Shown in pieces: positions 2,353 to 27,634 of a stretch of 64,000 nt of DNA (its first letter is position 1; each line of letters starts with the position of its first letter). Location: positions 62,001-126,000 of the forward strand of contig NIVC01001823.1 of NCBI GenBank assembly GCA_002269645.1. Direction: 5' to 3'. Made by a program: the position numbers and the translations under genes. The stretch comes from Macrostomum lignano (lineage: Eukaryota). The notes under the pieces were generated by a model that did no database searches, was not told the origin of the DNA, and saw only the letters and a list, made by a program, of their open reading frames with translations.

Positions 2353-2358
2353 AGCTTG
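2353..2358 (+). other. Target-site duplication AGCTTG (left copy; right copy 12709-12714)
   Basis: The paralogous empty site reads GCAGCG-AGCTTG-ATTTTCAG (48211-48230) with a single AGCTTG. Confidence 0.93.
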
Positions 2359-2878
2359 ACTACTAAGGACTGGCAGATCCGTTGATTTTGCGAAGGTCCG
2401 TCGGGCTGATGTCGGCCTCTAGCACCGCGGCAAGGTGCTCCCTCGGGGTGTACCACCTCCCCCGGGGTGTACCTCCAGCTGGGTGGGCGTCCAGCGAGTG
2501 TACCTCCAGCTGGGTGGGCGTCCAGCGAGTGTACCTCCAGCGGGGTGGGCCTCCTGCGAGTGTACATCCGGCAGGGTGGGCGTCCAGCGAGTGTACCTCC
2601 AGCGGGGTGGGCCTCCCTCGGGGTGTACATCCGGCGGGGGGGATTCCCACTCGTGTGCACGCGGCCCCCTGTAGCAGTATGAGGCGGGGTACAGAGAGAC
2701 ACGGGGTGCTGGGACAGAGAGTGCGTGGAGGCACCCTGCGCCGCCCCGGCATGTCGCAGCACGCGGCGTGGACAGAGAGGGAGTGTGAGTCACACGGAGG
2801 GACAGAGAGCTTCCCCAGGCCGGGGTGGTAGAGGGACAGACCGGCGGTGAGTGATAGAGAGCCCCCAGGCTGCAGAGG
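2359..2878. repeat. Left terminal inverted repeat (~520 bp)
   Basis: Reverse complement of 12070-12708 apart from internal indels; GC-rich with internal ~31-bp repeats of the type GTGTACCTCCAGC(T)GGGTGGGCGTCCAGCGA. Confidence 0.93.
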
Positions 2879-2959
2879 AATTGAAAAGAAAAAACACGTA
2901 ATTCAGTTGTTTCAGGTTCAGGCCATCCGGCAAACAGAGCAAAGCTCTCCAACAGTGTT

Positions 2960-3613
2960 TTATTTAGCATAAACTACGGGGTAGCGCCCCAACACATTAG
3001 CATAGTAGCGAACAGATGCGTTCTGCAAGCAATTAACAATCAGGTAGGAGTAGGGCTCCCTAGTGGCGTCTTCGTACATTTGAACAAAACTTTTTGGGTT
3101 AGCGGGGACAAGCTGCTTTGCAATATGGGCGACTGTACTAACGTCCCGTACATTGCGGAACAATACAAGGTAGTTTGCGTTAAGGGATTGAGTGCGGTGC
3201 TCCTTGCCCTTGGCAAACAGGTTTTGTACAAGGTACCAAAGCCGGAATCCCACATTGCTGACTTTGCGAGTGAAAAATGCGGTAAAAGCAGCGTTTTTTT
3301 CCATGGCTTGCATTTGATCATCGACAACGAGTAGAATATTCGGAGCGGGAACATAGGTTTCAGGGTTAAATGTAGACGAGCGAAAATTGACAGGGTACGG
3401 TAATTCAAACAGTTCCGGGTCTTGATAGTGCCCAAACCAATCAACGCGAACAGGCTTAGGGTCCTGAAAAAACTCGTTTCGCAGCAATTCTTTAACAAGA
3501 GTTGTTTTTCCGCTCTGGTTAACACCAGCAAAAATCGCCGAAGTATTTGGAGCAAACTTTAGAGCGTCAGGATCAATTGTTTGGTACATTTTCAGGGCGA
3601 GTTGACACTCCAA
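2960..3613 (-). CDS. A32/FtsK-HerA family genome-packaging ATPase
   Basis: Walker A GVNQSGKTT, Walker B LLVVDD, and YLVQNLF...RTQSLNANYLVLFRNVRD typical of Polinton ATPases. Confidence 0.92.
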   Translation of the reverse strand: MECQLALKMYQTIDPDALKFAPNTSAIFAGVNQSGKTTLVKELLRNEFFQDPKPVRVDWFGHYQDPELFELPYPVNFRSSTFNPETYVPAPNILLVVDDQMQAMEKNAAFTAFFTRKVSNVGFRLWYLVQNLFAKGKEHRTQSLNANYLVLFRNVRDVSTVAHIAKQLVPANPKSFVQMYEDATREPYSYLIVNCLQNASVRYYANVLGRYPVVYAK

Positions 3614-3623
3614 ATATTAAAAA

Positions 3624-4061
3624 CTATTTTATTTGTAGAACATGTTTTCGAACCATCAAATCATTTTCAAGCAGATTGGTAGAGTAACATTCCCTTAAAA
3701 TCTTTTCAATCGACAACCCCTCTAAAAAGTGCTTTTCGGCCACAAAAATCACATGCGGCCCACACGCTACACTTAGAGGGTGTTGAACAGTGTGGCGATT
3801 CATAGCAACAGGTGAATGTACATGCTTCGAGATCCAAGCCGAGAGCAATTCCGGCACGGGTTCAATACACAGGGGGTCAAAAAATGTCACACTCTTATCA
3901 TCGTGTAGGCAAATCAGTCCCCAGTGGGTGCCTGGCAGATTGCCCGTGTCAAAATTAATTACATATGCAGCAGGGTAAACAGGTGCAGGAATTCTGTCAA
4001 GAGGGCAAACGCGCACTTCCACAGGTAGTTTTAAACGTTCCAAAATTTCCAACGTGTCCAT
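3624..4061 (-). CDS. Adenain-like (C5 family) cysteine maturation protease
   Basis: Catalytic motifs GTHW, FFDPL and Q...SVACG. Confidence 0.9.
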   Translation of the reverse strand: MDTLEILERLKLPVEVRVCPLDRIPAPVYPAAYVINFDTGNLPGTHWGLICLHDDKSVTFFDPLCIEPVPELLSAWISKHVHSPVAMNRHTVQHPLSVACGPHVIFVAEKHFLEGLSIEKILRECYSTNLLENDLMVRKHVLQIK

Positions 4062-5337
4062 ACGTAGTCCAGAATGGGCTGGCGGCCTCTAGTGATTTGC
4101 ACCGCGTTGTCAAAGTAACCAAACACCAAAACGTTAATCCCGACAGGTAGGGCTGCAGAAAACTTTATCTGTAGGGTAAGATTCCCTCTCTCGCGAGGCA
4201 TGCTATGTCCACCCAGTTCCATGTCGGGCATTAGATTCCACGCAAATAAACAGTAACCAGCGCGATAATCCGAATATGACAGGTCAATGTCCAAATCACG
4301 ATTCATTTTCCCTAGGCTCTTAAACAGCATGGCGTATTCGCGAGCATAGTTTTGGGCAGCGAACCTTGGAGTGAATGGTTGACCGCACAGGCTGACCCCG
4401 TCCTTGTACAGGGCCACACTGTCCGCCCCAAATGGCTCGAAATTGAACGGATTATGGGTGGCCACCCCGTTATATGCGGCACTATTTACCATCCCCATAA
4501 TGACAAGTTTGGGCTTCTGTTCCGGGAAAATATTATTGATTGACACGTCGCGAACTCCTACAGCGACAGAGGTGTTGTGTACAACGAGGCGCTCGATGGG
4601 GTAGACTGCATTCTGAGTTGCCAGCTGTTCTTCAATCTCCAAGGCCAGTTGGGGGTTAGCCTTTACCCGACGAACGTGTAATTTTGCACTTTGAAGAACC
4701 AACTTTGCATCAACCCCTTCGGCGTGATTCTCCACAACGAATCCAGAATTTTGCAGAGTGAGCGTAACCATATCAGTGTAGGGTAGCAGCATACGATCGT
4801 TGGTGACAAAAAAGTCGAGACTAAGAGGGCCATACAGATGAAATGTTCGAGAACCGGCAGCCATCGCCTTGCGAGTTACAAAGCCAGGATTTCCAACCGC
4901 AGCCATTTGACCCCCAGCGTCTTTAGCGTAGCCCATCATCCGCAGTTGGTTAGACTTTGAATCAGACCCATAACTCAAGCATGTACGAATGTACGCCTTG
5001 TAGGCGTGGTTGTTGTTGCTAGACTCGATATGTGTACCATTTATGGAAAGAGACACGTTTTTGAACATGGTCTCCAGAGGTAATTGATTGGCGCCACGTT
5101 TGAATCCGCCGCCAAATCGGCTCCATTAGCTCTCTTAATACAACCTTTAATCTCGAGATCAATGTCATTAAGATCGACAAACGTCTCGCCGCCCACAATT
5201 CTAAACTCGACCACACTCGCATTTTCGACGCTGGCAACCGGGTGGATTTCTTCAGTAGTTGAACCTACAGCGGCAATCTGGTGGGCTCGAGGGGCAAAGA
5301 GCTCAAACTCGGACTTTGTACACAGACACTCGGACAT
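4031..5337 (-). CDS. Double jelly-roll major capsid protein (PY/hexon), one frameshift near 5078
   Basis: N-part MSECLCTKSEFELF...VEFRI...FVDLNDIDLEIK (5041-5337) joins C-part (L)ETMFKNVSLSINGTHIE..NNNHAYKAYI...NPFNFEPF...GYCLFAWNLMPD (4031-5068) across a 1-nt indel. Confidence 0.9.
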
Positions 5338-5366
5338 GTTTAGTAGACAGACTCGATTCGGCGAAT

Positions 5367-5711
5367 CTAATTGAAGCGGGGCTTTTTATTTATAGTGCTG
5401 AAAATGTCTGAATTGAGACGCTTCGGAGCCTTTTTTCTTCTTCGTCCGCTACCCCTTTGGGTAACCGTGTCTTTAAAGGCGTCCTTGGCAGCCTGAACAG
5501 AATTGCGCAGGACAGACTCTTTCAAATTGCCTCCTTGCTCGAGGCTATCGTTAACCGTAGTTGCTAGGGCTCTAGTACCATGACGGAGAATGTTTTTACC
5601 AAAACTCTTTAGAATTGGCAGCGCGAAGCGGGCAATGCTTCCAAACAAACCGTTGCCCCTCTGGGCGCCTGCGAAAACAGGCAAAGCTCCACCAATCAGA
5701 ATAGAAGGCAT
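5367..5711 (-). CDS. Small virion-type protein with QRGxG motifs, amphipathic helix and basic C-terminus
   Basis: LIGG and QRGNGLFGSIARFALPILKSFGKNIL; RRRKKAPKR near the end; position next to the MCP as in many Polintons. Function is inferred. Confidence 0.65.
   Translation of the reverse strand: MPSILIGGALPVFAGAQRGNGLFGSIARFALPILKSFGKNILRHGTRALATTVNDSLEQGGNLKESVLRNSVQAAKDAFKDTVTQRGSGRRRKKAPKRLNSDIFSTINKKPRFN
5383..5394 (-). promoter_or_regulatory. TATAAATAAAAA (TATA box plus AATAAA) upstream of MCP
   Basis: About 46 nt before the ATG at 5337. Confidence 0.5.
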
Positions 5712-5749
5712 GATTAAGCACTAGGATATAGTTTACTGAGGCTGTGTTG

Positions 5750-5759
5750 TTTATTTATA
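5750..5759 (-). promoter_or_regulatory. TATAAATAAA overlapping the penton stop, upstream of ORF 5711
   Basis: Minus strand CTATAAATAAAC; includes the TAA stop of the penton. Confidence 0.5.
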
Positions 5760-6890
5760 GCTTCTTTTCGCGGATGTTAACGCTCAAGACGGTCTTGCCC
5801 TCATTACTTTTGTCATATCCCTGCCCATATCATCGTTAATTTGTACTTCAATAGTTTTGAATGGGTGCTTAACCAGTGGTAGATATGCCGGATTGACAAA
5901 CTCGTAGTACTCGCGACCGCCCTGAACTTTGGGATCCATCGGTATAGCCCCAACAGAGGAACTTTAACGTCTCCTACAATAACAGAATCGACTATGCTCG
6001 AATAGATGTACATTGTTTGTATTCCACCGGTTAATTCCATTGATGCGTTTGCGTAGAATTCCGATATACCGAAAAATGGGGTTGTATAATCATGCTCTGG
6101 GAAACCAAGCACGCTGGTCAAGCGCCCCAGCCCAAACATGTAATCCGTCGAGCCAATGTAATAACACCTATTCGTAACTTCGCTGTATCTGAAAAAGTCC
6201 GTTCTAGTGCTGGAGCCGCTATGAGATCTTTGATATGTTTCCAAATTATATCGTTGAGTTCCTCCACCAATCTTTTAGGTGTACTATAGTATCCTCCCTG
6301 CATAAAAAAGATTTGATCAGACGCTGCGCTAGTAACTTGTCTTATTATTGGAGCATGGTCCATTGACTGTACAGTCGGTTCCTCAACAACTGCGGTGATG
6401 GAGGCTGCACACCCCGCGTGTAATACGAGTTCAGTAGGTAGATCCTCATTAGACTCGAAGCCGGCGACTAGTTTAAACACCTTGGGTAGGGTATCCGGGA
6501 ATTTGATGCCGACGGTGGATTTTGAAGTATTCACAATCATAAAGGCGGTTGGGGATGTTCTTAAAAAGACAATTTTCTTATTATCCCCTTCAACGTATCG
6601 GATACCGTTTAGAAAGCCGGAAATACATTCTTCAGGGGTTTTCAGACCCGCTGCGAGACAAAGTTTGCAAACGACGAAGCCGTCAAGAGGCCCTCCTGTT
6701 CGCGAATGGTGATCGGTATAGATTTTTTGAAAGATTCAAATTCTTTGGTAAAGTAGATCCGTTCGAGGCAAACCTCATGATTCGGAAAGTGGAGAGTGTC
6801 CGGTAAATTAATAAAATAATGAGCCGGATTATTTTCGGGATAGTGCTCGGGGCACGCATTGCTAGGCAGAAAGAGATGCATGGTAGCCAT
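5755..6890 (-). CDS. Minor capsid protein (PX/penton), several frameshifts
   Basis: N-terminus LFLPSNACPEHYPENNPAHYFINLP..EVCLERIYF. C-terminal YIYSSIVDSVIVGDVKVPLL, EFVNPAYLPL..FKTIEVQINDDMGR and GKTVLSVNIR are read across frames (shifts near 6655, 6200, 5950, 5800). Confidence 0.82.
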
Positions 6891-6893
6891 GCA

Positions 6894-7981
6894 TTAGTTA
6901 TTATTACGTTGACGTATATTTATAACTTCATTTACAGGTACAAATGAATTAAAAGTGTCGGGATAACCGCGCCAGCTAACGTAATGGTGCGCAACACCAT
7001 TTATTAACACGTTTCTACGCAAAACTTTATTGATTACAAAACGCTCGGGTCGGGTAGATTTGGACAGTTCATTGTAGTAAAACCGTCCCTCAATCACTTC
7101 ACCAGACAAATCAGAAATACGATAAAAATGTGGGGGTCCAGGACAAACTTTGGATATAATGTACACCTCCTCACTATACATGTCGTACGCCTCCTTGTCG
7201 AATGCCCTGCGAGATTTCGAAATTCTCACAAAATCCCCCTTTTTATATACGGGGTCGTCTTTTTGCTGATCCGGGTAGAGCTTTTCCCACACACGCTTCT
7301 GATTGTGGAACCCGAACTTGACGGTTTCATCTCAATAGTAGAATGCGTCGTGTTGTTGTAATTGCCTACCAAATTAGGTAAGTAGTCAACCCAACGCCAC
7401 GTGTTGTTGTGCTCAAAGTAGCGAGCCAGACGCTTTCGAAGAGTTCTAATCAGCCTCTCGGCCATGTTTGCCTTGTACACAGAGTTGGTGCTGTACATTT
7501 TAACATTATTGTCTTTTAGTATGCGGCGCATTCGCTGATTATAAAACTCGGTACCCCGATCCACGTGAAGGTAAAGGGGGCGGGCAGGGAAATCATTCGC
7601 CAACATTGACTCAAACGCTGCGGGGGTATCACTCTTTAGTTTAATTGCCCTACAAAAAGCCTGCTTACTAAGCACATCAATAATAACTAGTATATATTTA
7701 TGTCCGTCATTCCAACGTTTGTATCGCGACATGTCCATCAAATCGGCTTGTAGAGTTTCCATGAATCCTCCCGACATTACTTTTCCCGTTTTAAATGTCC
7801 TGTTGACTCTCCGGTGACGGGTGTAACTCGGTTGGGTTTCTAGCCATTCCCTGGTTTGGCGTCTTGTCAGGTTTGGCGCCAGACGTTTGGCCTCCTGATA
7901 GACACGGGCAGCATTTGAAAAAGCGGCGGCTCCTTGTTCGTAAACTCGACGAAGAGCGGTTAGAGCCCTCATTGACAACAA
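6894..7981 (-). CDS. Retroviral-like (rve, DDE) integrase with C-terminal chromodomain, frameshift near 7300
   Basis: LQADLMDM..YILVIIDVLSK, HVDRGTEF, KANMAERLIRTLR, NYNNTTHSTIEMKP; the 6894-7292 ORF carries GDFVRISK...YVSWRGYPDTFNSFVP (chromodomain). The true start may be near 8069. Confidence 0.93.
6915..6924 (-). promoter_or_regulatory. TATAAATATA upstream of penton
   Basis: About 25 nt before the ATG at 6890. Confidence 0.5.
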
Positions 7982-8103
7982 GTGTGGATGCGCAGCATGA
8001 ATAGTTGCACGTAATGTCGGCTGGGGAGTTGTCTACACAAAGCTTTGACGCGGCGGCTGCTGCGCCCATGACCGCCGGGCGCGGTTATGTATGGATTAGG
8101 GTT

Positions 8104-8112
8104 CTATTTATA
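8104..8112 (-). promoter_or_regulatory. TATAAATAG upstream of integrase
   Basis: About 35 nt before the ATG at 8069. Confidence 0.45.
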
Positions 8113-8144
8113 AAGAGTATCGTATTTTCGGTTCCGGGGCGGTC

Positions 8145-8731
8145 TTAGTTGGTAATCGTGATATTTACCCATCCCGGCACCTTGATCCACAAGTTGGGCA
8201 TAGCATTTACACCTTTGTTGCGCGTGGTCGTTAAATCGCGGGTGTCTGTCGCAATTGTGTGCTCATATTCATCGCGGTAATCATCGGTACCAACCATATG
8301 GTCAACCTTCTTTTCCTCCACAGGGAGCTGTTTCCGGCCGAGCATAGACATTGGTATACGGGCCTTGTCTAGCAGAGCCCAGAAAGCGGTCGAATATTTC
8401 GGGTGATTATTAGTGTTGGTGGTGACGGCTTGTAGAAGATCAAAAACGTTGCTACCACCCCAAGTTTCACCATCAAAAACGACTTCCCACGATTGGTTGT
8501 AATTTAGGCTGGGGTGCTTTTCTGTTAGTATATTCCATATACGTTGTTGCCTATCAGAAAATAGCTGCTTTGTCGTCTTTGGGGTTTTACTTTAGCCAAT
8601 TGGGTCTGTAGCTTTGCATTGTACTCTACAAGTTTTTCGTACTCCGATTTTGGGGCAATTTCTCGCGGAGTACCCTGTCTAAGCTGATTGAATTCCTCCT
8701 CGGGGACCACAACGTACTTGTCCATTTTCAA
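8145..8731 (-). CDS. Polinton-type hypothetical protein, frameshifted
   Basis: Fragments MKMDKYVVVPEEEF..., ...VVFDGETWGGSNVFDLLQAV...FWALLDKARIPMSM... read across ORFs 8525-8731 and 8145-8351; resembles an uncharacterised Polinton protein from memory. Confidence 0.45.
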
Positions 8732-9116
8732 CGTCGTTGTCCTAGCAGACCACCAAACAGTCCAGTGATTAACGGTGCAGCAATCTTGGCGAGAATTGGT
8801 AGGAATCCTCCAACTTGAGGGTCCGATAGTATCATATTCTTCTTCCTATTTATAGACAGTTTTTTGTCGGCCATGTCATGCAGGGCTTCTCTATAACGTT
8901 TCAACCTTGCAAACTGTCTAGGGGATAGATCGATATTGCCCTTGAGTACATTGTACTTAACTCGCACAGACACTGCATCAACTCATTATCGGCTCCCCTA
9001 ATAATGGCCCTCCTTCGATGTGGTCGCGCGTCACCGAGCTCCTCTAGCTCGCGACGGCAAGAACAAAGACGAGAAATTCCGTTTGTCATTATTAAGGTGG
9101 TAAGCATTGCGTGCAT
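8728..9116 (-). CDS. Small basic protein with adenovirus pX-like GGFLP tail, frameshift near 8958
   Basis: RRAIIRGADNELMQCLCEL joins YNVLKGNIDLS...QVGGFLPILAKIAAPLITGLFGGLL by a 1-nt indel; GGFLP..I.AP resembles the adenovirus pX C-terminal segment. Confidence 0.65.
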
Positions 9117-9132
9117 ACATGTGCATATTTTG

Positions 9133-9142
9133 TTTATTTATA
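9133..9142 (-). promoter_or_regulatory. TATAAATAAA between the TBP-like and pX-like genes
   Basis: About 17 nt before the ATG at 9116. Confidence 0.5.
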
Positions 9143-9154
9143 AGCAAAGCATAA

Positions 9155-9673
9155 TTAGAGTTGCAGAATAGCAGTCACGTGGTCGTACATTTTACACAGT
9201 TCGTCATAGTTTCGTATTCCTAGGAACACTAACCGACCATTCTTTCCGCACAGCAGGCACTTGGCCTTGCGGAATGGGGACTTTATTACAAGCCCATTGA
9301 ATACCTCACTCTCCCACTCAACCCAGCGCGAGCTCGAGTTGGCAAGGCGGAAAAAGTTTGGCTTAACATTAACTTCTGCACGATAAGTACCGGTAGTGAT
9401 AACAACAGAGTTTGGTTTACATTGAGCAAAAAGACGCAGCACATCGTTGGTTGATTGGCAACCAAAAACAATGGCAGATAATGAACGTTTGAAAAAGTTT
9501 ATTGTACACTTTCCGATCCTCAGGTTGTACAATGCCCGGGGTCTATGAAACGTTCTAGCGCGCGCCCAGTCCAAGTTCGGTAGGCTGTTCCACCTTGCGC
9601 AAAACACCCTGTTTACGCACACGACGTTCTGCAAGCGGTTTTTTCGGTTGCTTTTGTTTCCGCTCAGCTCCAC
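9155..9673 (-). CDS. Divergent TATA-binding protein (TBP)-fold protein
   Basis: LQNVV matches TBP LQNIV; [47 protein letters not shown] matches TBP [46 protein letters not shown]; length about one TBP core. Aligned by eye. Confidence 0.65.
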   Translation of the reverse strand: [172 protein letters not shown]

Positions 9674-10264
9674 CAGCTCCGCGCTTGCGTCCTACCTTGA
9701 TTTTTAACGGTGGAATCCAGTAGCAGCGGTCAAACGCCTGCTTGGGAGCTTCTATGAATTGCAGTTGTTGAATTTTTGGTACCGCGGTTAGAACCGAGTC
9801 GTGAATCACCGCCGTGTCTAGGGCGAACAGTACTCTATAGTAGCCCGTCTTGTTCTTGTAGTCGACAACTTGCCGCTCTTGTCGTACATTTTAAAGTCGT
9901 GAGCCAATCCGAATGCAGCGCTGTCGCAGCCAAAAGTGGGGTTGTACCCCAATAGCGCCATTCCTTGGATAGAGAGCTGGTGACACACGGAATTAAACGC
10001 TTCTGGTATGCAGCTCTCCAAGTGCTTTTGGGAAAGAATGATGAATTCGCGGCCTTCATTGTCGGTTCTCACACCCTTGACAATCAGTACGGGCGTCGCA
10101 TTGGCAAGATAGAGAGGGCCCTGTTCGTCGTACTCAATGTCGTACGTCTCGGTTCCGTTGTAGCTTGGACCTCTCGACTTGAGAGAGAATAGGTCGATCC
10201 TAACACTATTGTAGTCTTGAACGGTATCCATGTTGCTGCTGCTGTTGCTGAGAGTGGGTCTCAC
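9555..10264 (-). CDS. Hypothetical protein, possibly an OB-fold ssDNA-binding protein; frameshift near 9870
   Basis: ORFs 9818-10264 and 9555-9809 join as KMYDKSG/VVDYKNKTGYYRVLFALDTAVIHDSVLTAVPKIQQLQF, a pattern reminiscent of T7 gp2.5-like/NCLDV SSBs. Weak, by eye. Confidence 0.35.
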
Positions 10265-10336
10265 ACCCTGAGCGCCTCCTTATATACCCTTGGGGCGGAG
10301 GGTGGGGTGGCTGGGCGTTTTTGTTATAGTGCTTCT

Positions 10337-10840
10337 TTAACGACACTTTCCGGTGTTGGAAATCCGGAAAAAAATAAACCTTTTGTTTCGATCTTCTGGT
10401 CGAGGGGTTTGAGGCGTGTCGTTAATGCAGCTGCAGTGAGGGTTGATAGTCAACTTCGCTAGCACTGGTCTACTGTGTTTAGGTCGCCAAATCCTTTGGT
10501 GTTCCGTCCACGAGGGAGCAATCGGCTGGTGATTCCGGTACCGTATTTTCTCACGATGATCCTCTTGTAATATTGGGGCAATTATCTGCTCCATTCTTTG
10601 AAGATTGGCTTTGAAATGCATCTTGTCTCTAAAGTAGTAGTCAATTCGGGCATCTGTATATTCTTGGGTGCTGTAAGGCCCTTGCCCAATTTCGTCTACC
10701 TCGACATTAAAGGTGACTAATCGTTCGGGAATTGGTTTGCCGTGACAAATGCATAACCAGTCTGTGGACTTTTTCAGGGTCTCGTACTCTGCCCTTTCTT
10801 TGCTCGATAAAAGCGGGTAGTCTCGAGAAATCCAGCTCAT
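10337..10840 (-). CDS. Hypothetical protein of the Polinton
   Basis: 167-aa ORF, same strand, stop/start overlap with 10837-11214; no recognised motif. Confidence 0.45.
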   Translation of the reverse strand: MSWISRDYPLLSSKERAEYETLKKSTDWLCICHGKPIPERLVTFNVEVDEIGQGPYSTQEYTDARIDYYFRDKMHFKANLQRMEQIIAPILQEDHREKIRYRNHQPIAPSWTEHQRIWRPKHSRPVLAKLTINPHCSCINDTPQTPRPEDRNKRFIFFRISNTGKCR

Positions 10841-11214
10841 TCCTCTGACTCGTCAGATTCGTCGAGAAAGAAATAGTGGAAGAAATTGTCGACTCTATTC
10901 TTTTCAACTGCACAAAGTATTTTGTCTGACAGGTGAAATTCACAGTCTCCTTTTACGTACAGGCGCTTCCCGTCGATAACTTTGATAGATGCGCCGCCTC
11001 CGAGATCGTAATCTGTGCAGCTAGTGCCCAGAAATTTCATTCGATGCCATTGTGCTCGACTAAACACGGCTCCTGGACAGCTACAGTTTTGACAGTGGAT
11101 GCGGAAACGCGGCTTGTTTGGGTCCCAATATCCCACTTCCAGCACTGCGTTGTCAACGTGGGTGTACACTATTTCCGATTGCCAGTACATTTCGATATTG
11201 TTGAGAAATACCAA
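10837..11214 (-). CDS. Hypothetical protein, possibly PC4/Whirly-like fold, acidic tail
   Basis: LEVGYW..RFRIH....PGAVFSRAQWHRMK weakly resembles the PC4 pattern GISL..EQW..L; likely ATG at 11190. Confidence 0.4.
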   Translation of the reverse strand: MVFLNNIEMYWQSEIVYTHVDNAVLEVGYWDPNKPRFRIHCQNCSCPGAVFSRAQWHRMKFLGTSCTDYDLGGGASIKVIDGKRLYVKGDCEFHLSDKILCAVEKNRVDNFFHYFFLDESDESEE

Positions 11215-11215
11215 T

Positions 11216-11229
11216 TTTATTTATTTATA
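11216..11229 (-). promoter_or_regulatory. TATAAATAAATAAA overlapping the predicted Fic stop
   Basis: About 26 nt before the ATG at 11190. Confidence 0.5.
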
Positions 11230-12021
11230 GGCTGCCGTCTGAACAGATTTCCAACCATTCCCTCCACTGTAGAACGGTTCTCTCAATTGATAAAAGTAAA
11301 TACGCCGCTAGGAGCCCCCGTTGCTGCTGCGCGCTTCGTAAAGACAGTTGAGATATGTGTCTCTATTTGCATACGCAAATGATACGGGTTCTGGCAGAAT
11401 CCGGTTGAGCAACTTTGATAATAACAACCTAGCAGTTCTACCATTGCCGTCGCTAAAGGGGTGTATGGTGAGAAACTTTTCTAGGAAATATGCTCCTGTC
11501 ACTACTGCATTACGCAAGATTTGAGGCTCTTTTATGTCTCTAGTTAATTTTACCAGCTGCCGTTCGATATTTTCTGGGGCACTGTAATACATACTCGCGC
11601 CTGCTGGCTTAGCGTGCTTAATTCTATACGATCCCGCATTCGGGAGCAGTCCTCTGCACACGCGTGTGTGAACTTGTCTAACAAACTCTGTGTCAATTAA
11701 CCCCCTCGTGTCATTGAGGTGTATTGCCGCACTCCATAGATTGGCTGTGACCATACAGGACCGGGTTTTTATCGCTTCTTCTGCTTCCTCCCAAGTCAAC
11801 GCCACCTCTCTCTCCTCAATGTTTACTTCTGTTACGAATGCCAGCCGTGCTAGATGTGTGAATTCTAAGCGCTCCTTTGCGGTCAATCCCGCGATTCTTT
11901 TCCTAGTGTCTGATAACAATCTTTCAATGAGGGGTAATCTGGCGCGCACGCTCTCGTTGCTGAAATAGGGGTTATCAGTTATACCCTCTTCCATGTTCTC
12001 CATACAGAGGGTTTTGTACAC
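11225..12021 (-). CDS. Fic (Fido) domain protein, predicted AMPylase; last helix apparently frameshifted near 11320
   Basis: Canonical HPFSDGNGRTAR motif, GSYRIK loop and RDTYLNCLYEA; an alternative frame continues GLLAAYLLLSIERTV...CSDGSL to TAA at 11225-11227. Confidence 0.9.
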
Positions 12022-12069
12022 TGCTTCTATTTATGGTTGAATTAACACGTTGCTCGCGGCCTGTCTGTC

Positions 12070-12708
12070 CCTCTGCAGCCTGGGGGACTCTCTATCACTC
12101 ACCGCCGGTCTGTCCCTCTACCACCCCGGCCTGGGGAAGCTCTCTGTCCCTCCGTGTGACTCACACTCCCTCTCTGTCCACGCCGCGTGCTGCGACATGC
12201 CGGGGCGGCGCAGGGTGCCTCCACGCACTCTCTGTCCTAGCACCAGCACCCCGTGTCTCTCTGTACCCCGCCTCATACTGCTACAGGGGGCCGCCTGTTA
12301 TCTGTCCCCTGCTACAGGGGGGATGGCGGCTCTCCACGCACTACCCCTCCTGCTACAGGGGCTGCTCTCTGTCCCCAGCTACAGGGCTGCATGCTCACTG
12401 TACAGGGCTGCGTCAGCATCGGGGTTCCCCCAACACTAACCGCGTGCACACGAGTGGGAATCCCCCCCGCCGGATGTACACCCCGAGGGAGGCCCACCCT
12501 GCTGGAGGTACACTCGCTGGACTCCCACCCTGTCGGATGTACACTCGCGGGAGGCCCACCCCGCTGGAGGTACACTCGCTGGACGCCCACCCCGCTGGAG
12601 GTACACCCCGGGTGTACACCCCGAGGGAGCACCTTGCCGCGGTGCTAGAGGCCGACATCAGCCCGACGGACCTTCGCAAAATCAACGGATCTACCGTTGC
12701 TTAGTAGT
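12070..12708. repeat. Right terminal inverted repeat (~640 bp)
   Basis: Inverted copy of 2359-2878 with an extra internal segment at about 12290-12440. Confidence 0.93.
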
Positions 12709-13639
12709 AGCTTGATTTTCAGTCTGGGATTTAAGCCTGATGGAGTTTCAGTAGACATGGGCTTACATTATACACTGGTACAGTCTCGGAATGTTAAAAA
12801 GTAATCAGTGAGAACACATCCACTCAGATATCTACCCAGACTGCCACCTGGACATCCGCAACACGCATCTATTGCGCATCCACCACGCATCCATCCAAGC
12901 ATCCGCCCACGCATTAACCAATAACTCTACCCAGGCATCCACCAATATCTTCACACACGCATCCACTCACGCATCAAAATAATGCACCTATCTAAGTATC
13001 CACCCATTTGTTCAAAGCAAGTTACAGTTGAAACAAGTCTTCTAATGCGAATTAAAGTGTAACAAATCAAACTGCAGTGTTTGACTAGAGGTTGGGCCTG
13101 CTGGTAGTTCAAGGGTTCCTAGTTAATAACGTGTTGAATTACGATAAAAATCATTATTTTCAAAAGAAAATGTTACATGAAGACACAGTAAAAAGGTTTG
13201 GTTAGTCTGTGCTCAAAACTGACGCAATGAAAATGACATCAAACGAAGTCTTGAAGCAGACGGCAAACGAGGATCAGCACATTCTGCAATAAGCAACAAA
13301 AATGTTGGAAGGAAAAGCTTTTAAGCCAAGGCAAGCCGCCCAGTGCTTCTTCACTGCATTCAGAAATGAATTCTTACAGAAGTTGATTCTGTTGATCGCT
13401 GAAATTTTTATTGAATAATGACATAAAGCCAGAGTATCATTTACAATCGGGCATGTCTTGTTAAGCCATTCTGCTAATTGATTAAGGTGCGAAATTCCCA
13501 ACACCTCGTCAATCATGACGCGCGAAGCAGTCAACTGAGATGCTGAGTTGTGTTACACAGGTAGTTCATAAACTGTTTTGGAAACGGAGGTCACTTCCTC
13601 ACAGCTGGCTTATACATTACAATTCTCAAATCCCATCAA

Positions 13640-14269: not shown

Positions 14270-14850
14270 TGTTTGAGGGGCCGCCGTTCATTTGAGGGGG
14301 CGCCATTCATTTGAGGGGCTGCCGTTCATTTGAGGGGCTGCCGTTCATTTGAGGGGCGCCATTCATTTGAGAGCGCCATTCATTTGAGGGGCTGCCGTTT
14401 ATTTGAGAGGCCGCCATTCATTTGAGAGCGCCATTCATTTGAGGGGCTGCCGTTCATTTGAGAGGCTGCCGTTCATTTGAGGGGCTGCCGTTCATTTGAG
14501 GGCTGCCGTTCATTTGAGGGCTGCCGTTCATTTGAGGGGCTGCCGTTCATTTGAGGGCTGCCGTTCATTTGAGGGGCTGCCGTTTATTTGAGGGGCTGCC
14601 GTTCATTTGAGAGGCTGCCGTTCATTTGAGAGGCTGCCGTTCATTTGAGGGGCTGCCGTTTATTTGAGGGGCTGCCGTTCATTTGAGAGGCTGCCGTTCA
14701 TTTGAGAGGCTGCCGTTCATTTAAGGGGCTGCCGTTCATTTGAAGGGCTGCCGTTCATTTGAGGAGCTGCCGTTCATTTGAGGGGCTGCCGTTCATTTGA
14801 AGGGCGCTATTCATTTGAGGGGCGCCATTTATTTGAGGGGCGCAATTTCA
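14270..14850. repeat. 19-bp minisatellite TTCATTTGAGGGGCTGCCG
   Basis: Direct inspection; only about 3 units at 49100-49160. Confidence 0.9.
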
Positions 14851-14864
14851 TTTAAGGAGGCGCC

Positions 14865-15425
14865 AGAACCAGGGGCCTTAGCACCAGGGGCTTTAACACC
14901 AAGGGCTTTAGCAACAGGGGCTTTAGCACCAGAAGCTTTAGCACCGAGGGCTTTAGCACCAGAATCCCAGGGGCTTTAACACCAGGGGCTTTAGCAACAG
15001 GGGCTTTAGCACCAGAAGCTTTAGCACCGAGGGCTTTAGCACCAGAATCCCAGGGGCTTTAACACCAGGGGCTTTAGCACCAGGGGCTTTAGCACCAGGG
15101 GCTTTAGCACCAGGGGCTTTAGCACCAGGGGCTTTAGCACCAGGGGCTTTAGCACCAGGGACGCCAGCACCAGGGGCTTTAGCAACAGGGGCGCCAGCAC
15201 CAGGGGCGCCAGCACCAGGGGCGCCAGCACCAGGGGCTTTAGCACCAGGGGCTTTAGCACCAGGGGCTTTAGCACGAGGGGCTTTAGCACTAGGGGCTTT
15301 AGCACCAGGGGCTTTAGCACCAGGGGCGCCAGCACCAGGGGCGCCAGCACCAGGGGCTTTAGCACCAGGGGCTTTAGCACCAGGGGCTTTAGCACCAGGG
15401 GCGCCAGCACCAGGGCCGCCAGCAC
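14865..15425. repeat. 15-bp minisatellite AGCACCAGGGGCTTT
   Basis: Direct inspection. Confidence 0.9.
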
Positions 15426-16204
15426 ACCAACAGCTCCAACTCACAAACAGCTTCAACTCACCTTTCCCAGGCTTGGCGGCCCTCTGCCTCTCCATGGCCC
15501 CAGCGTAGAGGTACCGGCAGTCCGGGCTGTGCTGCAGCGCCAAGAAGCCCAGGAAGGGCGGCAGCGACTTGCCGATGTCCTGGTGCGCGTGGTCCACGCA
15601 GCTCTGGCGCCAGGCCTGAGTCGGGATGAGATGAAGAGAGAGAATATTTTTTACAGTTGATTTGCTGATCGCTCTACTATGAGTAGTTTATGTCATGGTG
15701 GGGACTACTGGCAGTTCCATGCTCCATCAGCTCACTCCAGCTGCTCAAACCGGACTCACCAGAGAAGTCCTCCTCAGGGTGTCCTTGGCGGCGGCCGCCA
15801 CCCGGCTCTGCAGGCCGTTGCAAAACGCGGCCTCAGCCTCCAAGTTGTCCAGCTGGTTGATGAGGGCCGCCGTCTCGGACATGTTCGAGTCTCTCAGGGC
15901 GAGACGGAGAGTCCTGCGAAGCTGCTTGGCCGTCTCGCAGGACTGATGCAGAGTGAGCTGCTGCCACGCGATGCTGAGGTCGAACTGACCGATGCACTCC
16001 AGCAGCTCCTGGCTGGCTTGGCTGGCCACGTCCTGCGGTTCGTGTCATGGAATTCGGTCATGGGCAATTGCATTCGGTCATAGGCAATTAAATTCGGTCA
16101 TAGGCAATTAAATTCGGTCATAGGCAAATACATTCGGTCATAGGTAATAAATATAGCAGAGACTATCGGTTTAAATCACCCGACGGCATCACAGAGCCAT
16201 GAAC

Positions 16205-16550: not shown

Positions 16551-18279
16551 AGAGCGTCCTTGTGCAGCGCCACAGTCTGCGCCTGCTGCAGCACCTCCGT
16601 GGCCTGCGCAAGCCGGTCGCGGCTCCGCTGAAACGCCGTCCACGCCTGCCGGGTCCGCCTGGCGGCTTTGGCTTCGCGTTCTCGAGCCGCGGCTGCCACC
16701 AACAGCGGCGTCTTGACAGCCGTCGCCGAGGAGTCTTTGTCTTCGCCTGCCTCCTCCGCGACCTCAGCTTCGGTGCCGGCTGCTGCCGCGGCCGTCGTAT
16801 CGCCGGAATCTCCAGCTGGCCAGGCAGACGGGTCGATGTCCAGCAGGCGCCACTGAGCGGGCGAGTCCGGGTCCAGCCGGCTCGCCAGGAGGCGCAGGGC
16901 GCGGCCGATCAGCGCCAGGCTGCGGGCGCGAGTCGGCAGGGGGCCGCCAGGCGAGCTGAGCGAGTGCGCGTCCTGCAGCTGCCCGACAGCGAGGTCGAAG
17001 GCCAGGCGGACCTTCGACATCCAGGCGGACTGGGACTCGGTGAGGCGGGGCGTCTCCTGGACGAATTCCTCGACGGCTTTGGTGTCCGCGGACTTTGCGA
17101 GCTGGAGCTCCGCCTGGGTGCGCTCTTCGTCCACCTGCGAGTTGGGTGCGGGTTTAGTGACTGGGATGGTTTAGTGGGTTCTCAGAGGGTGTCCTGAGTT
17201 CTCTAGGGCTGTGAAGGCAGCAACTGAGGATCTGGGAGGCTGGCCCAGCAACTGAGGATCTGGAGGCTGGCCCAGCAACTGAGGATCTGGAGGCTGGCCC
17301 AGCAACCAACACGGGATGGATGCGTGGGTGGATGTGATGTGTTCCTTATTACCCGACTTTCGATAGTCAAGGAACAATCACTTCTAGCTCAACAGCTAGG
17401 CAACCCAGTTAGTCAAACGAAGGTATTTAATTACCTTTAATCCGGATTTGAACTTCTTGAGTAGTTCTCGCTAGGAACTCGTCAGTAGATCTCGTGTAGA
17501 TCTAGTCACTGTCTTGGATCCGCTTCTCTGGTCCTGATTCTTCTTTTGCTTCCAACGAAATTACTTCCGGCCGGTATCTGCAGTCAGGACCAATCAGAGG
17601 CCTCGTATCAACAATGGGTACCCTGCGCCGAACAGCGGTTTGAATTAAGCCTCCTTCTTCTAGCAGTGCCTTTATGCACTCTAGGTATGGCTCCGGAAAC
17701 CACTGATAGTCCTCTAAGATCTATCAGGGGCAGTCCTTCTGGAGACTGCAACCAATGGAGTCTAAACAGACTCAAGAGTCTCAACAGACCCAAATAGACT
17801 CAAGTCTCAATAGACTTGAGCGAGACGTCTCTAACACAACGGGCGCAAATAAGGAAGGCTTACCGCAACAACTCGACCGAGTCTCGATTGACTTGGTGAT
17901 CAGGAAGTCCTCCTGAGGCTTCCTCTTCGGAGCTTCTCCTCTCGTCGGGAGTTGGCTCCTGGTCCGCTTCGGACCGCTTGTATTTATAGGCAACTTTTTG
18001 ATCCAAAATAGCATCATTACAATCCACGTGTTGCGCTAAAAGGGGAAAATGGCTCATGGCGTATCATTTTGGTAACATCTTTTCCTGGTAGCGTGATTCA
18101 TTCAAAGCTTAGGCGCACATGCGTGTACTTACTTACTTATAGTAGCATTATACGATTATCTTCTTTTAACCTTTTTTAACGGGAGGTAGAACACTCTAAA
18201 GATGCGTGGGCGGTCAGCTAAGAAGCTCATCGCTCACCTATTGCCCTCCTCATCATTGGCCAACCGGCTCATCTCCATC

Positions 18280-18910
18280 TGAAAGAGTGAAGGGAGGGAA
18301 AGAGTGAAGGGAGGGAAAGAGTGAAGGGAGGGAAAGAGTGAAGGGAGGGAAAGAGTGAAGGGAGGGAAAGAGTGAAGGGAGGGAAAGAGTGAAGGGAGGG
18401 AAAGAGTGAATGGAGGGGAAGGAGTTAAGGGAGGGAAAGAGTGAAGGGAGGGAAAGAGTGAAGGGAGGGAAAGAGTGAAGGGAGGGAAAGAGTGAAGGGA
18501 GGGAAAGAGTGAAGGGAGGGAAAGAGTGAAGGGAGGGAAAGAGTGAAGGGAGGGAAAGAGTGAAGGGAGGGTAAAGAGTGAAGGGAGGGAAAGAATGAAG
18601 GGACGGAAAGAGTGAAGGGAGGGTAAGAGTGAATGGAGGGAAAGAGTGAAGGGAGGGAAAGAGTGAAGGGAGGGTAAAGAGTGAAGGGAGGGTAAGGAGT
18701 GAAGGGAGGGAAAGAGTGAAGGGAGGGAAAGAGTGAAGGGAGGGTAAGAGTGAATGGAGGGAAAGAGTGAAGGGAGGGAAAGAGTGAAGGGAGGGAAAGA
18801 GTGAAGGGAGGGAAAGAGTGAAAGGAGGGAAAGAGTGAAGGGAGGGAAAGAGTGAAGGGAGGGAAAGAGTGAAAGGAGGGAAAGAGTGAAGAGTGGGGAA
18901 AGAGTGAAAA
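18280..18910. repeat. 17-bp purine-rich minisatellite GGGAGGGAAAGAGTGAA
   Basis: Direct inspection. Confidence 0.9.
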
Positions 18911-19349
18911 GCCGAGAGATTAAGGAATGATGAAAGCTGACTCCGGATCCAGTTGAGTTCGGAAGGAAAAGTTTTGTGAACCGCAGAGCGCATGGGTAAT
19001 AAATCAATTACTCAACTTTTCTTTTCACTTTCAGACTGTTTTTCCTGTCCTGTTTTCACGCGTTGCACCTGGTTTTCTGTTGCTATGCAAGTTTGTTATT
19101 TAGTTTGGACGTTTGAAATTTTTAGGAAAAAATTAATTATGAAAATTCCATTTGATCGCTTATCGGCGGTCATCAAATTTGAGGCGTTTTAAAATTTCGA
19201 AACATACTCGCGCATATGAGACTTAGCTGCATCAGCTGTAAGAAGGGTTTGTTAAATTATTCAATTTCTTCTTATAATTGCTTCTTTTTCAACTTGAATT
19301 CATACTTGCTTTTGGCTAAGTTGCTTGCGAGCTAAAGATTAAATATTTC

Positions 19350-20460
19350 TAACTAGACATTTATCACCTGGATAATGGGGTCTCTAACTGGAGATTTATT
19401 ACCTGGATAATGGGGTCTGTAACTAGAAATTTATTACCTGGATAATGGGCTCTCTAACTAGAGATTTATTACCTGGATAATGGGCTCTCTAACTAGAGAT
19501 TTATTACCTGGATAATGGGGTCTGTAACTAGAGATTTATTACCTGGATAATGGGGTCTGTAACTAGAGATTTATTACCTGGATAATGGGCTCTCTAACTA
19601 GAGATTTATTACCTGGATAATGGGGTCTGTAACTAGAGATTTATTACCTGGATAATGGGCTCTCTAACTAGAGATTTATTACCTGGATAATGGGGTCTGT
19701 AACTAGAGATTTATTACCTTCATAATGGGGTCTCTAACTAGAGATTTATTACCTGGATAATGGGGTCTCTAACTAGAGATTTATTACCTGGATAATGGGG
19801 TCTCTAACTAGAGATTTATTACCTGGATAATGGGGTCTGTAACTAGAGATTTATTACCTTCATAATGGGGTCTCTAACTAGAGATTTATTACCTGGATAA
19901 TGGGCTCTGTAACTAGAGATTTATTACCTGGATAATGGGGTCTCTAACTAGAGATTTATTACCTGGATAATGGGGTCTGTAACTAGAGATTTATTACCTG
20001 GATAATAGGGTCTCTAACTAGAGATTTATTACCTGGATAATGGGGTCTCTAACTAGAGATTTATTACCTGGATAATGGGGTCTCTAACTAGAGATTTATT
20101 ACCTGGATAATGGGCTCTCTAACTAGAGATTTATTACCTGAATAATGGGGTCTCTAACTAGAGATTTATTACCTGGATAATGGGCTCTGTAACTAGAGAT
20201 TTATTACCTGAATAATGGGGTCTCTAACTAGAGATTTATTACCTGGATAATGGGGTCTCTAACTAGAGATTTATTACCTGGATAATGGGGTCTGTAACTA
20301 GAGATTTATTACCTGGATAATGGGCTCTCTAACTAGAGATTTATTACCTGAATAATGGGTTCTCTAACTAGAGATTTATTACCTGGATAATGGGGTCTCT
20401 AACTAGAGATTTATTACCTGGATAATGGGGTCTCTAACTAGAGATTTATTACCTGGATAA
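19350..20460. repeat. 35-bp minisatellite CTAGAGATTTATTACCTGGATAATGGGGTCTCTAA
   Basis: Direct inspection. Confidence 0.9.
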
Positions 20461-20752
20461 TGGTTGAGCTCATATGCATGGCAGCTTTCACATGCTCCCT
20501 GAATTTTATTCACGCATACACTGCATTTTACAAGTCAACAAAATATAGCAGTTGTCATGGCTACCGGGTATGCCAGGTGTCTGCAGGAAAAGAATTGCTG
20601 CCAGCTAAAACGCGATTGGCTTTCGTCAAGAATTATAAAAGCTTTTTAAGCTGTCTACTGTGTTGAAAGAGTTGAGTCTACTCTGCATCAGTTTAACAAA
20701 ACTCAACTGCTCTGCTGGTGAATCATTGATCAAAATTCACACAATAGAAAGC

Positions 20753-22537
20753 ATGTTCCTGCTGCTGCTGTGGGCGAACCTTGTCACCACCTGTTGTGCG
20801 GTGGAGCCGTCGCAGCCTCTGGGGTTTGCCTACATCGGTTGCTACTATGACGGCGACAACAGTGACCGAGACCTCATCGGGCTCAAAGGGCTCAGCAGCT
20901 TCGGTCCGCATGGAACAGACCCCGGCGCTCCGGCCTTTGTCAGCAGCTCCGCGATGACGCTGGAAATGTGCGGCCGAATCTGCGCTTACGGTCGGTTCCG
21001 CTACTTCGGGGTGCAGGCAAACGATTACTGCTGCTGCGACTCAACCTACGGTTCGAGAGGTGCCGCTTCTGAGGGTGACTGCCGCGCGACATGCACTGGA
21101 AATTCGAGCCAGGTCTGCGGTGGATATTCCAGGAATTCAATCTTTGAACTGTTCTACAGGCCGTGTAAGTTTAAGCCAAAATAGCCGGGCAGTCAACGCC
21201 TGCATGTACATGTAGACCTGTACATGGGCTTCGTCATAGATTTTTTAGTGGTCGGGGGGCCAAGCCAATAATTCCACATGGCTAGATTCCTACATTATAT
21301 TATTGGGAATCTGTATATTGTAAGCACTCATTTTGGCGCCACAGGTACTCATTTTGGCACCGCAGCACTCACTTTGGCACCGCAGACACTCATTTTGGCG
21401 CCGCAGACACTCATTTTGGCGCCACAGGTACTCATTTTGGCGCCGCAGCACTCACTTTGGCGCCGCAGGCACTCATTTTGGCGCCGCAGCACTCATTTTG
21501 GCGCCACAGAAACACATTTTGGCGCCCTGAAGCAAAGTTATCGATGTCCATAACGGGTCACAATTAAGGACAAAGCATTGGCATGCCCCCAATAGCTTAT
21601 ACTGACCCCCTGTCCCCAGGGGACTAAACTTCAAAGAAAAGTCTGGGCCGCTGTGAGCGCCCCGTGTGAGCGTGTGTGCCTGCGTACGTATCTGTGTCTG
21701 TGTTTGTCCATATAGTAAGTCAGCGGAATGGACATGACTGCTCACCTCCTGGTTGACTCTTATAGTAAGTCAGCGAAATGGACATGACTGCTCACCTCCT
21801 GGTTGACTCTTATAGTAAGTCAGCGAAATGGACATGACTGCTCACCTCCTGGTTGACTCTTATAGTAAGTCAGCGGAATGGACATGACTGCTCACCTCCT
21901 GGTTGACTCTTATAGTAAGTCAGCGGAATGGACATGACTGCTCACCTCCTGGTTGACTCTTATAGTAAGTCAGCGGAATGGACATGACTGCTCACCTCCT
22001 GGTTGACTCTTATAGTAAGTCAGCGGAATGGACATGACTGCTCACCTCCTGGTTGACTCTTATAGTAAGTCAGCGGAATGGACATGACTGCTCACCTCCT
22101 GGTTGACTCTTATAGTAAGTCAGCGGAATGGACATGACTGCTCACCTCCTGGTTGACTCTTATAGTAAGTCAGCGGAATGGACATGACTGCTCACCTCCT
22201 GGTTGACTCTTATAGTAAGTCAGCGGAATGGACATGACTGCTCACCTCCTGGTTGACTCTTGCATATTCCTACCTTTGAAAATTCCTTCCAGTTGGTTCA
22301 ACAATGAAGAAGTTCTCCGTCTCCGCCATGCCGGTGATCTCAGCTGTCGATGGAACCGTCGTTAAGAACAGCTTCCCAGCGGCCGTTGAATTCCAGTGCG
22401 CTGCCACCTGCCAACGCAGCCCCGACTGTCTCGGCTGCGTCTTCGCGTCTTCGAGTCGAGTGTGCCGTCTGCTGAAGTTCTTTGCTGTGCCTGCCGAAGT
22501 GGCCAGCGAGGCTGAGTGGGTTTGGATGAAGCTGTGA
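20753..22537 (+). CDS. Secreted WSC-domain + PAN/Apple-domain protein, copy 1 (exons 20753-21164, 22293-22537)
   Basis: Signal peptide MFLLLLWANLVTTCCA; WSC motif YIGCY..MTLEMC..C....YFGVQ..YCCC..C..C.GNSSQVCGG; second exon CAATC..SPDCLG......CRL; phase-1 GT-AG intron. Confidence 0.8.
21712..22261. repeat. 50-bp tandem repeat, about 11 copies, in the WSC/PAN intron
   Basis: Unit ATAGTAAGTCAGCGGAATGGACATGACTGCTCACCTCCTGGTTGACTCTT. Confidence 0.9.
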
Positions 22538-26310: not shown

Positions 26311-27505
26311 TACAAGTGTGCATAGGAGCTGTATCCAATGACAAGCATCCAGTGTGCATAGGAGCTGTATCCAATGACAAGCATCCAGTGTGCATAGGAG
26401 CTGTATCCAATGACAAGCATCCAGTGTGCATAGGAGCTGTATCCAATGACAAGCATCCAGTGTGCATAGGAGCTGTATCCAATGACAAGCATCCAGTGTG
26501 CATAGGAGCTGTATCCAATGACAAGCATCCAGTGTGCATAGGAGCTGTATCCAATGACAAGCATCCAGTGTGCATAGGAGCTGTATCCAATGACAAGCAT
26601 CCAGTGTGCATAGGAGCTGTATCCAATGACAAGCATCCAGTGTGCATAGGAGCTGTATCCAATGACAAGCATCCAGTGTGCATAGGAGCTGTATCCAATG
26701 ACAAGCATCCAGTGTGCATAGGAGCTGTATCCAATGACAAAAATCCAGTGTGCATAGGAGCTGTATCCAATGACAAGTATCCAGTGTGCATAGGAGCTGT
26801 ATCTAATGACAAGCATCCAGTGTGCATAGGAGCTGTATCCAATGACAAGCATCCAGTGTGCAAAGGAGCTGTATCCAATGACAAGCATCCAGTGTGCATA
26901 GGAGCTGTATCCAATGACAAGCATCCAGTGTGCATAGGAGCTGTATCCAATGACAAGCATCCAGTGTGCATAGGAGCTGTATCCAATGACAAAAATCCAG
27001 TGTGCATAGGAGCTGTATCCAATGACAAGTATCCAGTGTGCATAGGAGCTGTATCTAATGACAAGCATCCAGTGTGCATAGGAGCTGTATCCAATGACAA
27101 GCATCCAGTGTGCATAGGAGCTGTATCCAATGACAAGCATCCAGTGTGCATAGGAGCTGTATCCAATGACAAGCATCCAGTGTGCATAGGAGCTGTATCC
27201 AATGACAAGCATCCAGTGTGCATAGGAGCTGTATCCAATGACAAGCATCCAGTGTGCATAGGAGCTGTATCCAATGACAAGCATCCAGTGTGCATAGGAG
27301 CTGTATCCAATGACAAGCATCCAGTGTTCATAGGAGCTGTATCCAATGACAAGCATCCAGTGTGCATAGGAGCTGTATCCAATGACAAGCATCCAGTGTG
27401 CATAGGAGCTGTATCCAATGACAAGCATCCAGTGTGCATAGGAGCTGTATCCAATGACAAGCATCCAGTGTGCATAGGAGCTGTATCCAATGACAAGCAT
27501 CCATG
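26311..27505. repeat. 36-bp tandem repeat, about 33 copies
   Basis: Unit CCAGTGTGCATAGGAGCTGTATCCAATGACAAGCAT, head-to-tail, no spacers. Confidence 0.92.
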
Positions 27506-27634
27506 CGCATCGTAGCTGTATCCAATGACTGAGCAGCAGCAGCTATAGATACAATGATAATATCAATGATATTAACGCTAAGTCTGCAGCACAGGTGTAA
27601 AGCAGCGGCCGCAATGAAAGTGTGCGATAAAGAT

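Follow-up and report, generated by a model that had tools for sequence, protein, structure and literature searches.

Viral TBPs are known from herpesviruses, poxviruses (PMC12917281), and NCLDVs, and a TBP label stands in one figure legend on MELD viruses (PMC8502044). In beta- and gammaherpesviruses, the vTBP (KSHV ORF24 and its kin) combines a TBP fold with an extra domain, works with host RNA polymerase II (Pol II), and acts on a short TA-rich late-gene box, an arrangement like the one that we model here from sequence. ORF24 needs five partner activators, and no such set was recognized in the element described below. By PMC12529657, four intercalating phenylalanines are a rule of the TBP family, and ORF24 keeps all four, lacks the acidic residues for TFIIB, and is modelled as TFIIB incompatible. 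Poxvirus VETF-l and VITF-3 and the TBP homologues of NCLDVs are divergent viral TBP folds for stage-specific promoters (PMC12917281). They serve a virus-encoded RNA polymerase; neither such a polymerase nor a TFIIB-like partner was recognized in our 10-kb element. In the work on MELD viruses with adintovirus-like PolB (Starrett et al. 2021, PMC8502044), the TBP label stands in a figure legend only; what it has in common with the element reported here is a TBP-like gene in a Polinton-class element. Because the label was already in print, an earlier note on this DNA overstated the novelty of a Polinton TBP. Neither "promoter" nor "splic" occurs in the main text of PMC8502044, and one supplement gave no match to TBP. 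In the literature searched, which takes in few subscription papers, figures, or bioRxiv supplements, neither spliced TBPs nor boxes paired with them are described for Polintons, nor is a split Polinton, and nothing pertinent appeared on Polinton late genes together with promoter and splicing.

When analyzing a 64,000-nucleotide stretch of Macrostomum lignano contig NIVC01001823.1 (the window), we delimited an element with the following parts.

2359..12708, minus strand: Polinton-type element, 10,350 bp, every gene on the minus strand; termini ACTACT...AGTAGT; without pPolB
2353..2358, no strand: 6-bp TSD AGCTTG, left copy
12709..12714, no strand: 6-bp TSD AGCTTG, right copy
2359..2866, no strand: left terminal inverted repeat (TIR)
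12083..12708, no strand: right TIR
11308..12003, minus strand: Fic-domain gene (PF02661, E 3e-14)
6894..7972, minus strand: rve integrase with chromo-like end (PF00665, E 7.5e-10; chromo, E 0.07), split over two frames in the window copy
5813..6890, minus strand: putative minor capsid protein, in three pieces in the window copy, without family match
4031..5337, minus strand: putative major capsid protein, in two frames in the window copy, without family match
3624..4061, minus strand: cysteine protease (PF02902, weak match, E 0.009)
2960..3589, minus strand: packaging-type ATPase (Walker A GVNQSGKT)

The genes follow one another on one strand in the order Fic, two unknown ORFs, an upstream gene, the TBP-like frame, small ORFs, integrase, putative minor and major capsid, PZ-like, protease, and ATPase. 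The minor capsid, major capsid, and PZ-like labels are ones that we presume, with no family match behind the capsid labels; the putative major capsid protein is 26 to 31% identical to the like gene of pPolB-bearing elements. The TIRs, 6-bp TSD, and retroviral-type (rve) integrase are those of Polintons, Mavericks, and adintoviruses, and the ATPase motif, the weakly matched protease, and the putative capsid would be shared with them too. Unlike them, the element has no pPolB, for which no match was found in the window or in any of the eight family A/B elements tested (0/8); pPolB lies on a separate element with matching ends. The earlier description of the TBP-like protein as encoded by a Polinton is therefore apt for the ends, integrase, and virion genes and needs a qualifier for the absent polymerase.

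A genome search gave 91 matches (93 candidates scored), comprising family A, which matches at 99%, and family B, which matches at about 75%. Family A copies differ by a mean of 0.3% over the TBP-like exon, which indicates recent spread. Multiple genes are frameshifted in the window copy; when the window is compared with contigs of four public runs, small indels separate them at 12 or more places, so some of these breaks may be copy specific or assembly errors. The Fic gene is present in family A and unmatched in the family B copies examined; its domain (window 11308-12003) carries the motif HPFSDGNGRTAR and is a possible AMP-transferase cargo. The middle of the putative minor capsid gene (window 6118-6735) is 26% identical between A and B, against 70 to 90% for its neighbours, and may be a variable surface region. 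Outside the element, host tandem arrays with units of 15, 17, 28/34, 35, and 36 nt (window 14819-15559, 18193-20524, 22505-23948, 26171-28470, and 58466-59462) account for many spurious long ORFs.

The TBP-like frame and its surroundings comprise the following features.

9155..9628, minus strand: TBP-like coding exon of 157 codons and a stop codon, with two half-saddles of which the first is shortened
9629..9695, minus strand: predicted intron, 67 nt, phase 0; donor AAG/GTAGG, acceptor TTGCAG/AAC
9632..9634, minus strand: TTG, rival non-AUG start, inside the predicted intron
9696..10231, minus strand: upstream gene, about 181 aa to the donor, frameshifted in the window copy (frames 9818-10231 and 9555-9890), without family match

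Pfam PF00352 matches the frame at E 9.7e-5 over the second repeat only, with 22.6 bits, 0.3 bit under the curated cutoff of 22.9; the ENA relative P0002 scores 18.1 bits. The much better conservation of the second repeat, seen earlier by eye, is thereby borne out. TBP made up 19 of the 20 PDB sequence matches at E<=10 (best E 0.003). Among language-model neighbours in the ESM Atlas, a TBP family set was common to 28 of 30 matches (best 0.95), and a profile of seven family members aligned with three cellular TBP-family rows over both lobes (93%, E 3.4e-7, residues 33-158 counted from TTG 9634). A 16-residue match and a C-terminal helix match proposed before reappear in the PDB sequence matches and in the profile alignment. 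Structure prediction gives the bilobed alpha/beta saddle expected of two TBP repeats. With four family rows as its only input, the AF2 model is poor (pLDDT 47), yet TBP chains head its PDB matches, weakly, at a best E of 1.8e-3 and with none at E<=0.001; a second model, to which family C and host TBP rows were added and which they bias, has pLDDT 76 and a TMq of 0.65-0.79 against TBP chains. In a search against viral models, the best named matches were NCLDV TBPs; herpes UL87/BcRF1-type and poxvirus early factors ranked lower.

Identity to host TBP is only about 20%. Residues are given here by what we take to be the yeast TBP numbers of their equivalents. In alignment with host TBP, both stirrup glutamates (E186 and E188), F190, and the phenylalanine at F116 are kept, and N69 and V71 probably are; the equivalents of F99 and F207 are lost, N159 and V161 are replaced by threonine, the proline after F190 (P191) is asparagine, and the first lobe lacks about 12 residues of helix 2. 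Two of the four intercalating phenylalanines thus remain, one per lobe, as the remark that only some are left had anticipated. Counted from TTG, the stirrup glutamates are E108 and E110, invariant in 14/14 rows of alignment A2 and 7/7 of A3; the first acidic residue is aspartate in clade D. Compared with cellular TBP and TRF (PF00352; PDB 1ytb and 1cdw), the exon shares the two-lobed saddle, the E-x-E-x-F stirrup motif of the second repeat, and the phenylalanines at F116 and F190, and it differs in overall identity, in the lost F99 and F207, in the short helix, and in having no start codon of its own. With two of the four phenylalanines and the second asparagine lost and the helix of lobe 1 short, TATA binding may be weak or changed.

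The domain is constrained. Between the window and five family B copies, dN/dS is 0.071 to 0.074 (dN 0.14 to 0.15; dS close to saturation at about 2). The two repeats give like values, three other frames show no such signal, and the TBP-like frame is intact in all 20 of the top 20 family A loci. A dN/dS of about 0.07 indicates that the domain is under purifying selection and functional at the protein level.

Phylogenetic analysis groups clade D with A/B at 99/98 support. Recent capture from the host was tried as an explanation, and a grouping with host TBP was rejected (p-AU 0.0003), as was a grouping of A/B with family C (p-AU 0.009). A single origin of all Polinton TBP-like proteins, at 84/79 in a tree with only three cellular rows, is neither established nor rejected. 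Few relatives turned up in protein collections (P0002-P0004 and P0006). None of the 67 candidate stretches from viral contigs proved to be a relative of family A/B, nor did any of the 56 for family C, and the only metagenome match (L099, MAAC01018510.1) was discarded as a chance likeness to a small gene within an operon of bacterial type. For host TBP and for a TRF2-like paralogue, three contigs each were found (L037-L039 and L043-L045), with the core in one open frame. A survey of other Polintons in the same genome, as had been proposed, yielded two further TBP-like families, C and D, each with its own box.

Two classes of promoter-like boxes were recognized in the window element.

10278..10289, minus strand: class-2 box GGGTATATAAGG, 55 nt before the ATG of the upstream gene; predicted early promoter of the TBP unit
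11222..11229, minus strand: class-1 box TATAAATA, before ORF 10837-11190
9135..9142, minus strand: class-1 box TATAAATA, before ORF 8728-9137; overlaps AATAAA just past the TBP stop
8847..8854, minus strand: class-1 box TATAAATA, upstream of ORF 8145-8725
8105..8112, minus strand: class-1 box TATAAATA, before ORF 7791-8069 and the integrase
6917..6924, minus strand: class-1 box TATAAATA, before the putative minor capsid gene
5752..5759, minus strand: class-1 box TATAAATA, before the PZ-like core protein gene
5387..5394, minus strand: class-1 box TATAAATA, before the putative major capsid gene

All seven class-1 boxes are on the coding strand and none is on the opposite strand, a count for which 0.15 was the expectation and 2 the highest value in 300 simulations; 53.6 kb of flank contains one. 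Six of the seven sit 26 to 57 nt before an ATG, four overlap an AATAAA poly(A) signal, and neither the protease nor the ATPase gene has a box of its own before it. Each of two family B copies also carries seven, at matching genes. The TBP unit has a different box, GGGTATATAAG, and the same class (GGGTATATAA) precedes the PC4-like gene of pPolB-only elements. Family C, with a stand-alone, ATG-started TBP-like gene beside pPolB, has TTAAGAA seven to nine times and TATAAATA not once; family D has TATAAGC seven times in the one element counted and again no TATAAATA. The herpesvirus late box, TATTWAA, is non-canonical, whereas TATAAATA is canonical-like and a non-canonical box occurs only in family C. 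This pairing of a TBP variant with its own box, in three families and hence few independent cases, is the main argument for a promoter role, which it suggests. The argument is tempered by TATAAATA being an ordinary TATA box, and thus a host TBP site as well, and by the four overlaps with AATAAA. The family C box also precedes the family C TBP gene itself, so that a simple early-to-late cascade fits less well there. In a pPolB-bearing Polinton of another lineage (L079-L080, G000:C2506), the stretch examined has neither a TBP-like match nor a box clearly biased towards one strand; it is a single AT-rich example and a weak control.

The earlier note had read the frame as a 172-aa ORF. The minus-strand frame 9155-9673 is real and TBP-like, with 172 aa from a GTG (178 aa from stop to stop, 9155-9691); the 172-aa length did not hold up, since there is no ATG near its start, the GTG region is unconserved in family B, and A-B DNA homology ends at about 9655 and resumes at 9691. 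Donor AAAATCAAG/GTAGG and acceptor TTGCAG/AAC, both in phase 0, are found in 20/20 family A loci and in all 11 family B copies examined, across a spacer of 67 nt in A and 196 to 206 nt in B. A and B agree in all eight codons at these sites, against a background of 122 identical among 243 same-residue codons; the chance of this, about 0.005, is a product of per-residue rates for sites chosen after the fact. Read unspliced, the predicted intron encodes a lysine-rich tail of the upstream protein. The search for family D, whose TBP-like frame is near pPolB and has no ATG at its start either, gave 72 matches of 79 candidates. In this sister clade, the upstream gene has a GTRAG donor at an invariant K-x-L/V-S within an otherwise unconserved basic tail in 13/13 copies examined, and a polypyrimidine-YAG acceptor lies directly before the ATG-less TBP frame in 11 of the 13; four broken copies of the 17 (L120, L124, L127, and L128) were left out of these counts. 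The TBP-like frame is thus probably an exon joined to the upstream gene rather than a 172-aa gene. The A/B acceptor is purine rich and has no polypyrimidine tract, and no longer fused protein was found among candidates of 280 to 2,000 aa, a weak test.

The proposed match of LQNVV to LQNIV of TBP is probably coincidental: P0002 reads QSIR there with CVNxVF kept, the profile alignment leaves these residues out, and LQ belongs to the TTGCAG acceptor. Because LQ falls inside the acceptor, the first TBP strand is more likely VNRVFCARW, mirroring TTGTYRAEV of the second repeat. Splicing was preferred over a programmed frameshift, which appears less likely given a spacer length of 1 mod 3 in A but of 2 mod 3 in six of ten measured B copies. 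As the upstream gene is frameshifted in the window copy, the fusion would be out of frame there. In one family A copy (L106:2480-3604, G000:C4486), the spacer is shorter by one base, so that upstream gene and TBP-like exon form a single open frame of 375 codons; this may be a mutation or an assembly slip. In a clade D subfamily (L118:940-2346, G000:C297; L119:903-2321, G000:C1431), the TBP-like frame continues in frame into a kinase-like domain (469 to 473 aa), which we presume to be a nucleoside/thymidylate kinase; the two are separate in other clade D subfamilies.

A search with the terminal motif gave 26 matches versus 0 in the control. Among the elements with this motif, C491 (10.1 kb) and C986 (9.8 kb) carry pPolB, a PC4-like gene, and 6-bp TSDs, and gave no match to integrase, capsid, or TBP-like queries. 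The end of both is identical over 32 nt to a family A copy, C2210 (the first 32 nt of its right TIR); C3516, of which one end was examined, resembles them. The window element has ACTACT termini, versus AGTAGT in the pPolB-bearing elements C114, C754, and C2506 of the same genome. The simplest reading of these ends is mutual complementation between pPolB-only and capsid/integrase elements. Segments of Bidnaviridae have matching termini (PMC8502044), and the window element and its probable pPolB-only partner resemble them in this respect, being separate elements with matching ends.

Beyond the 32 nt shared with family A, the pPolB-only ends (L088 and L089) continue with GGTGGGTGTCA, a sequence also present in family B TIRs. 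A second pPolB-only type with a dUTPase (L085-L086, G000:C1263) has ends resembling family B. The same terminal motif lies on elements of 1.3 to 18 kb (G000:C56:643541-661960, C3682:17099-24839, C1597:101984-103293, and C3395:15140-16451), of which C56 and C3682 match no Polinton query and may be non-coding hitchhikers of the system. In the window itself, a 2.2-kb element with inverted ends (55762-57938) has a PC4-like frame (57137-57439) close to that of the family C Polinton (E 4e-31) and is probably a deleted derivative.

We propose, at roughly an even chance of being right, that the element encodes a spliced TBP-fold late-promoter factor that would bind TATAAATA and recruit host TFIIB and Pol II. 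The proposal starts from TBP homology, purifying selection, a conserved donor and acceptor, two classes of promoter-like boxes, no pPolB in cis, and termini shared with pPolB-only elements. Early on, host TBP would read the GGGTATATAA-class box of the TBP unit. Unspliced mRNA would give the upstream protein with its basic tail, and alternative splicing at the weak acceptor would turn part of the mRNA into a fusion of upstream domain and TBP. The fusion would then bind the class-1 box and bring host TFIIB and Pol II to the particle and integration genes. A pPolB-only partner element would supply DNA polymerase in trans and would in turn use the integrase of the TBP-bearing element. Between the two roles suggested before, promoter-specificity factor and decoy, the former appears the better supported, given one recurrent box per TBP-like family and the kept acidic stirrup, and the latter is retained as a rival.

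A less probable, indeed unlikely, alternative is that the protein serves replication or packaging: the spliced product would tether an SSB-like domain to AT-rich duplex at termini or origins, and host TBP alone would read the TATA boxes. Both box classes agree with TATAWAWR, which we take to be the usual TATA consensus, and host TBP could accordingly read TATAAATA unaided. The box class of the TBP unit is shared with a gene of the polymerase element, and in two sister clades the TBP-like exon is predicted to be joined to a basic-tailed upstream gene, which would suit this role. Comparison of the A/B upstream gene with that of D does no more than hint at homology (E 0.02 in each of two runs, probability 2%; blastp E 3e-4 over 31 aa). 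The SSB identity itself, a presumed resemblance to the T7-type (gp2.5-like) viral SSB, has no tool behind it, the upstream protein having no match in Pfam, PHROGs, PDB, or the ESM Atlas, and the role leaves unexplained why each TBP-like family has its own box and why the stirrup glutamates are kept. SSBs of T7 type are reported from related viruses (bioRxiv 2024.02.29.582850).

Slightly more doubtful is a decoy or repressor, a TBP mimic that would soak up host TFIIB or TBP regulators or block early or host promoters. The best-kept surface is the TFIIB-facing stirrup and the DNA face lacks half of its key residues, the reverse of the pattern in KSHV ORF24 (PMC12529657). Family-specific boxes would be unexpected for a pure decoy, however, and a phenylalanine in each lobe together with a T/S-x-T strand motif common to all Polinton families aligned suggests a DNA face that is retained and altered.

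More doubtful again is the same promoter role exercised by a stand-alone 159-aa mini-TBP from the conserved TTG (9634). This codon is present in all A and B copies examined, P0002 has its start called at the same position, and family C TBP-like genes stand alone with an ATG. Four runs, taken by guess to be RNA, have contigs that pass through the intron unspliced, and no spliced joint over it was found; none of the 24 runs listed is an RNA run on record, and the flat contig cover over the locus is not evidence of expression. However, no promoter box precedes the TTG, its start context is poor, a conserved donor would go unexplained, and clade D has neither TTG nor ATG there, yet has textbook acceptors. 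Finally, a captured host TBP fragment in functionless drift, which the about 20% identity and the score below the Pfam cutoff would suit, is very improbable, being refuted by the low dN/dS and opposed by the 20 intact loci and the rejected grouping with host TBP.

The proposed spliced late-promoter factor bears on the timing of Polinton gene expression and on whether Polintons are true viruses with a late program. Three TBP-like families in one genome, each with its own box, lend themselves to a swap experiment on promoter recognition. If the proposal is true, a 157-residue saddle without half of its intercalating phenylalanines and with the TFIIB stirrup would show how little is needed for private promoters on host Pol II, by a way unlike those of herpesviruses and poxviruses, and the split between polymerase and capsid/integrase elements would add a segmented lifestyle to the Polinton group.
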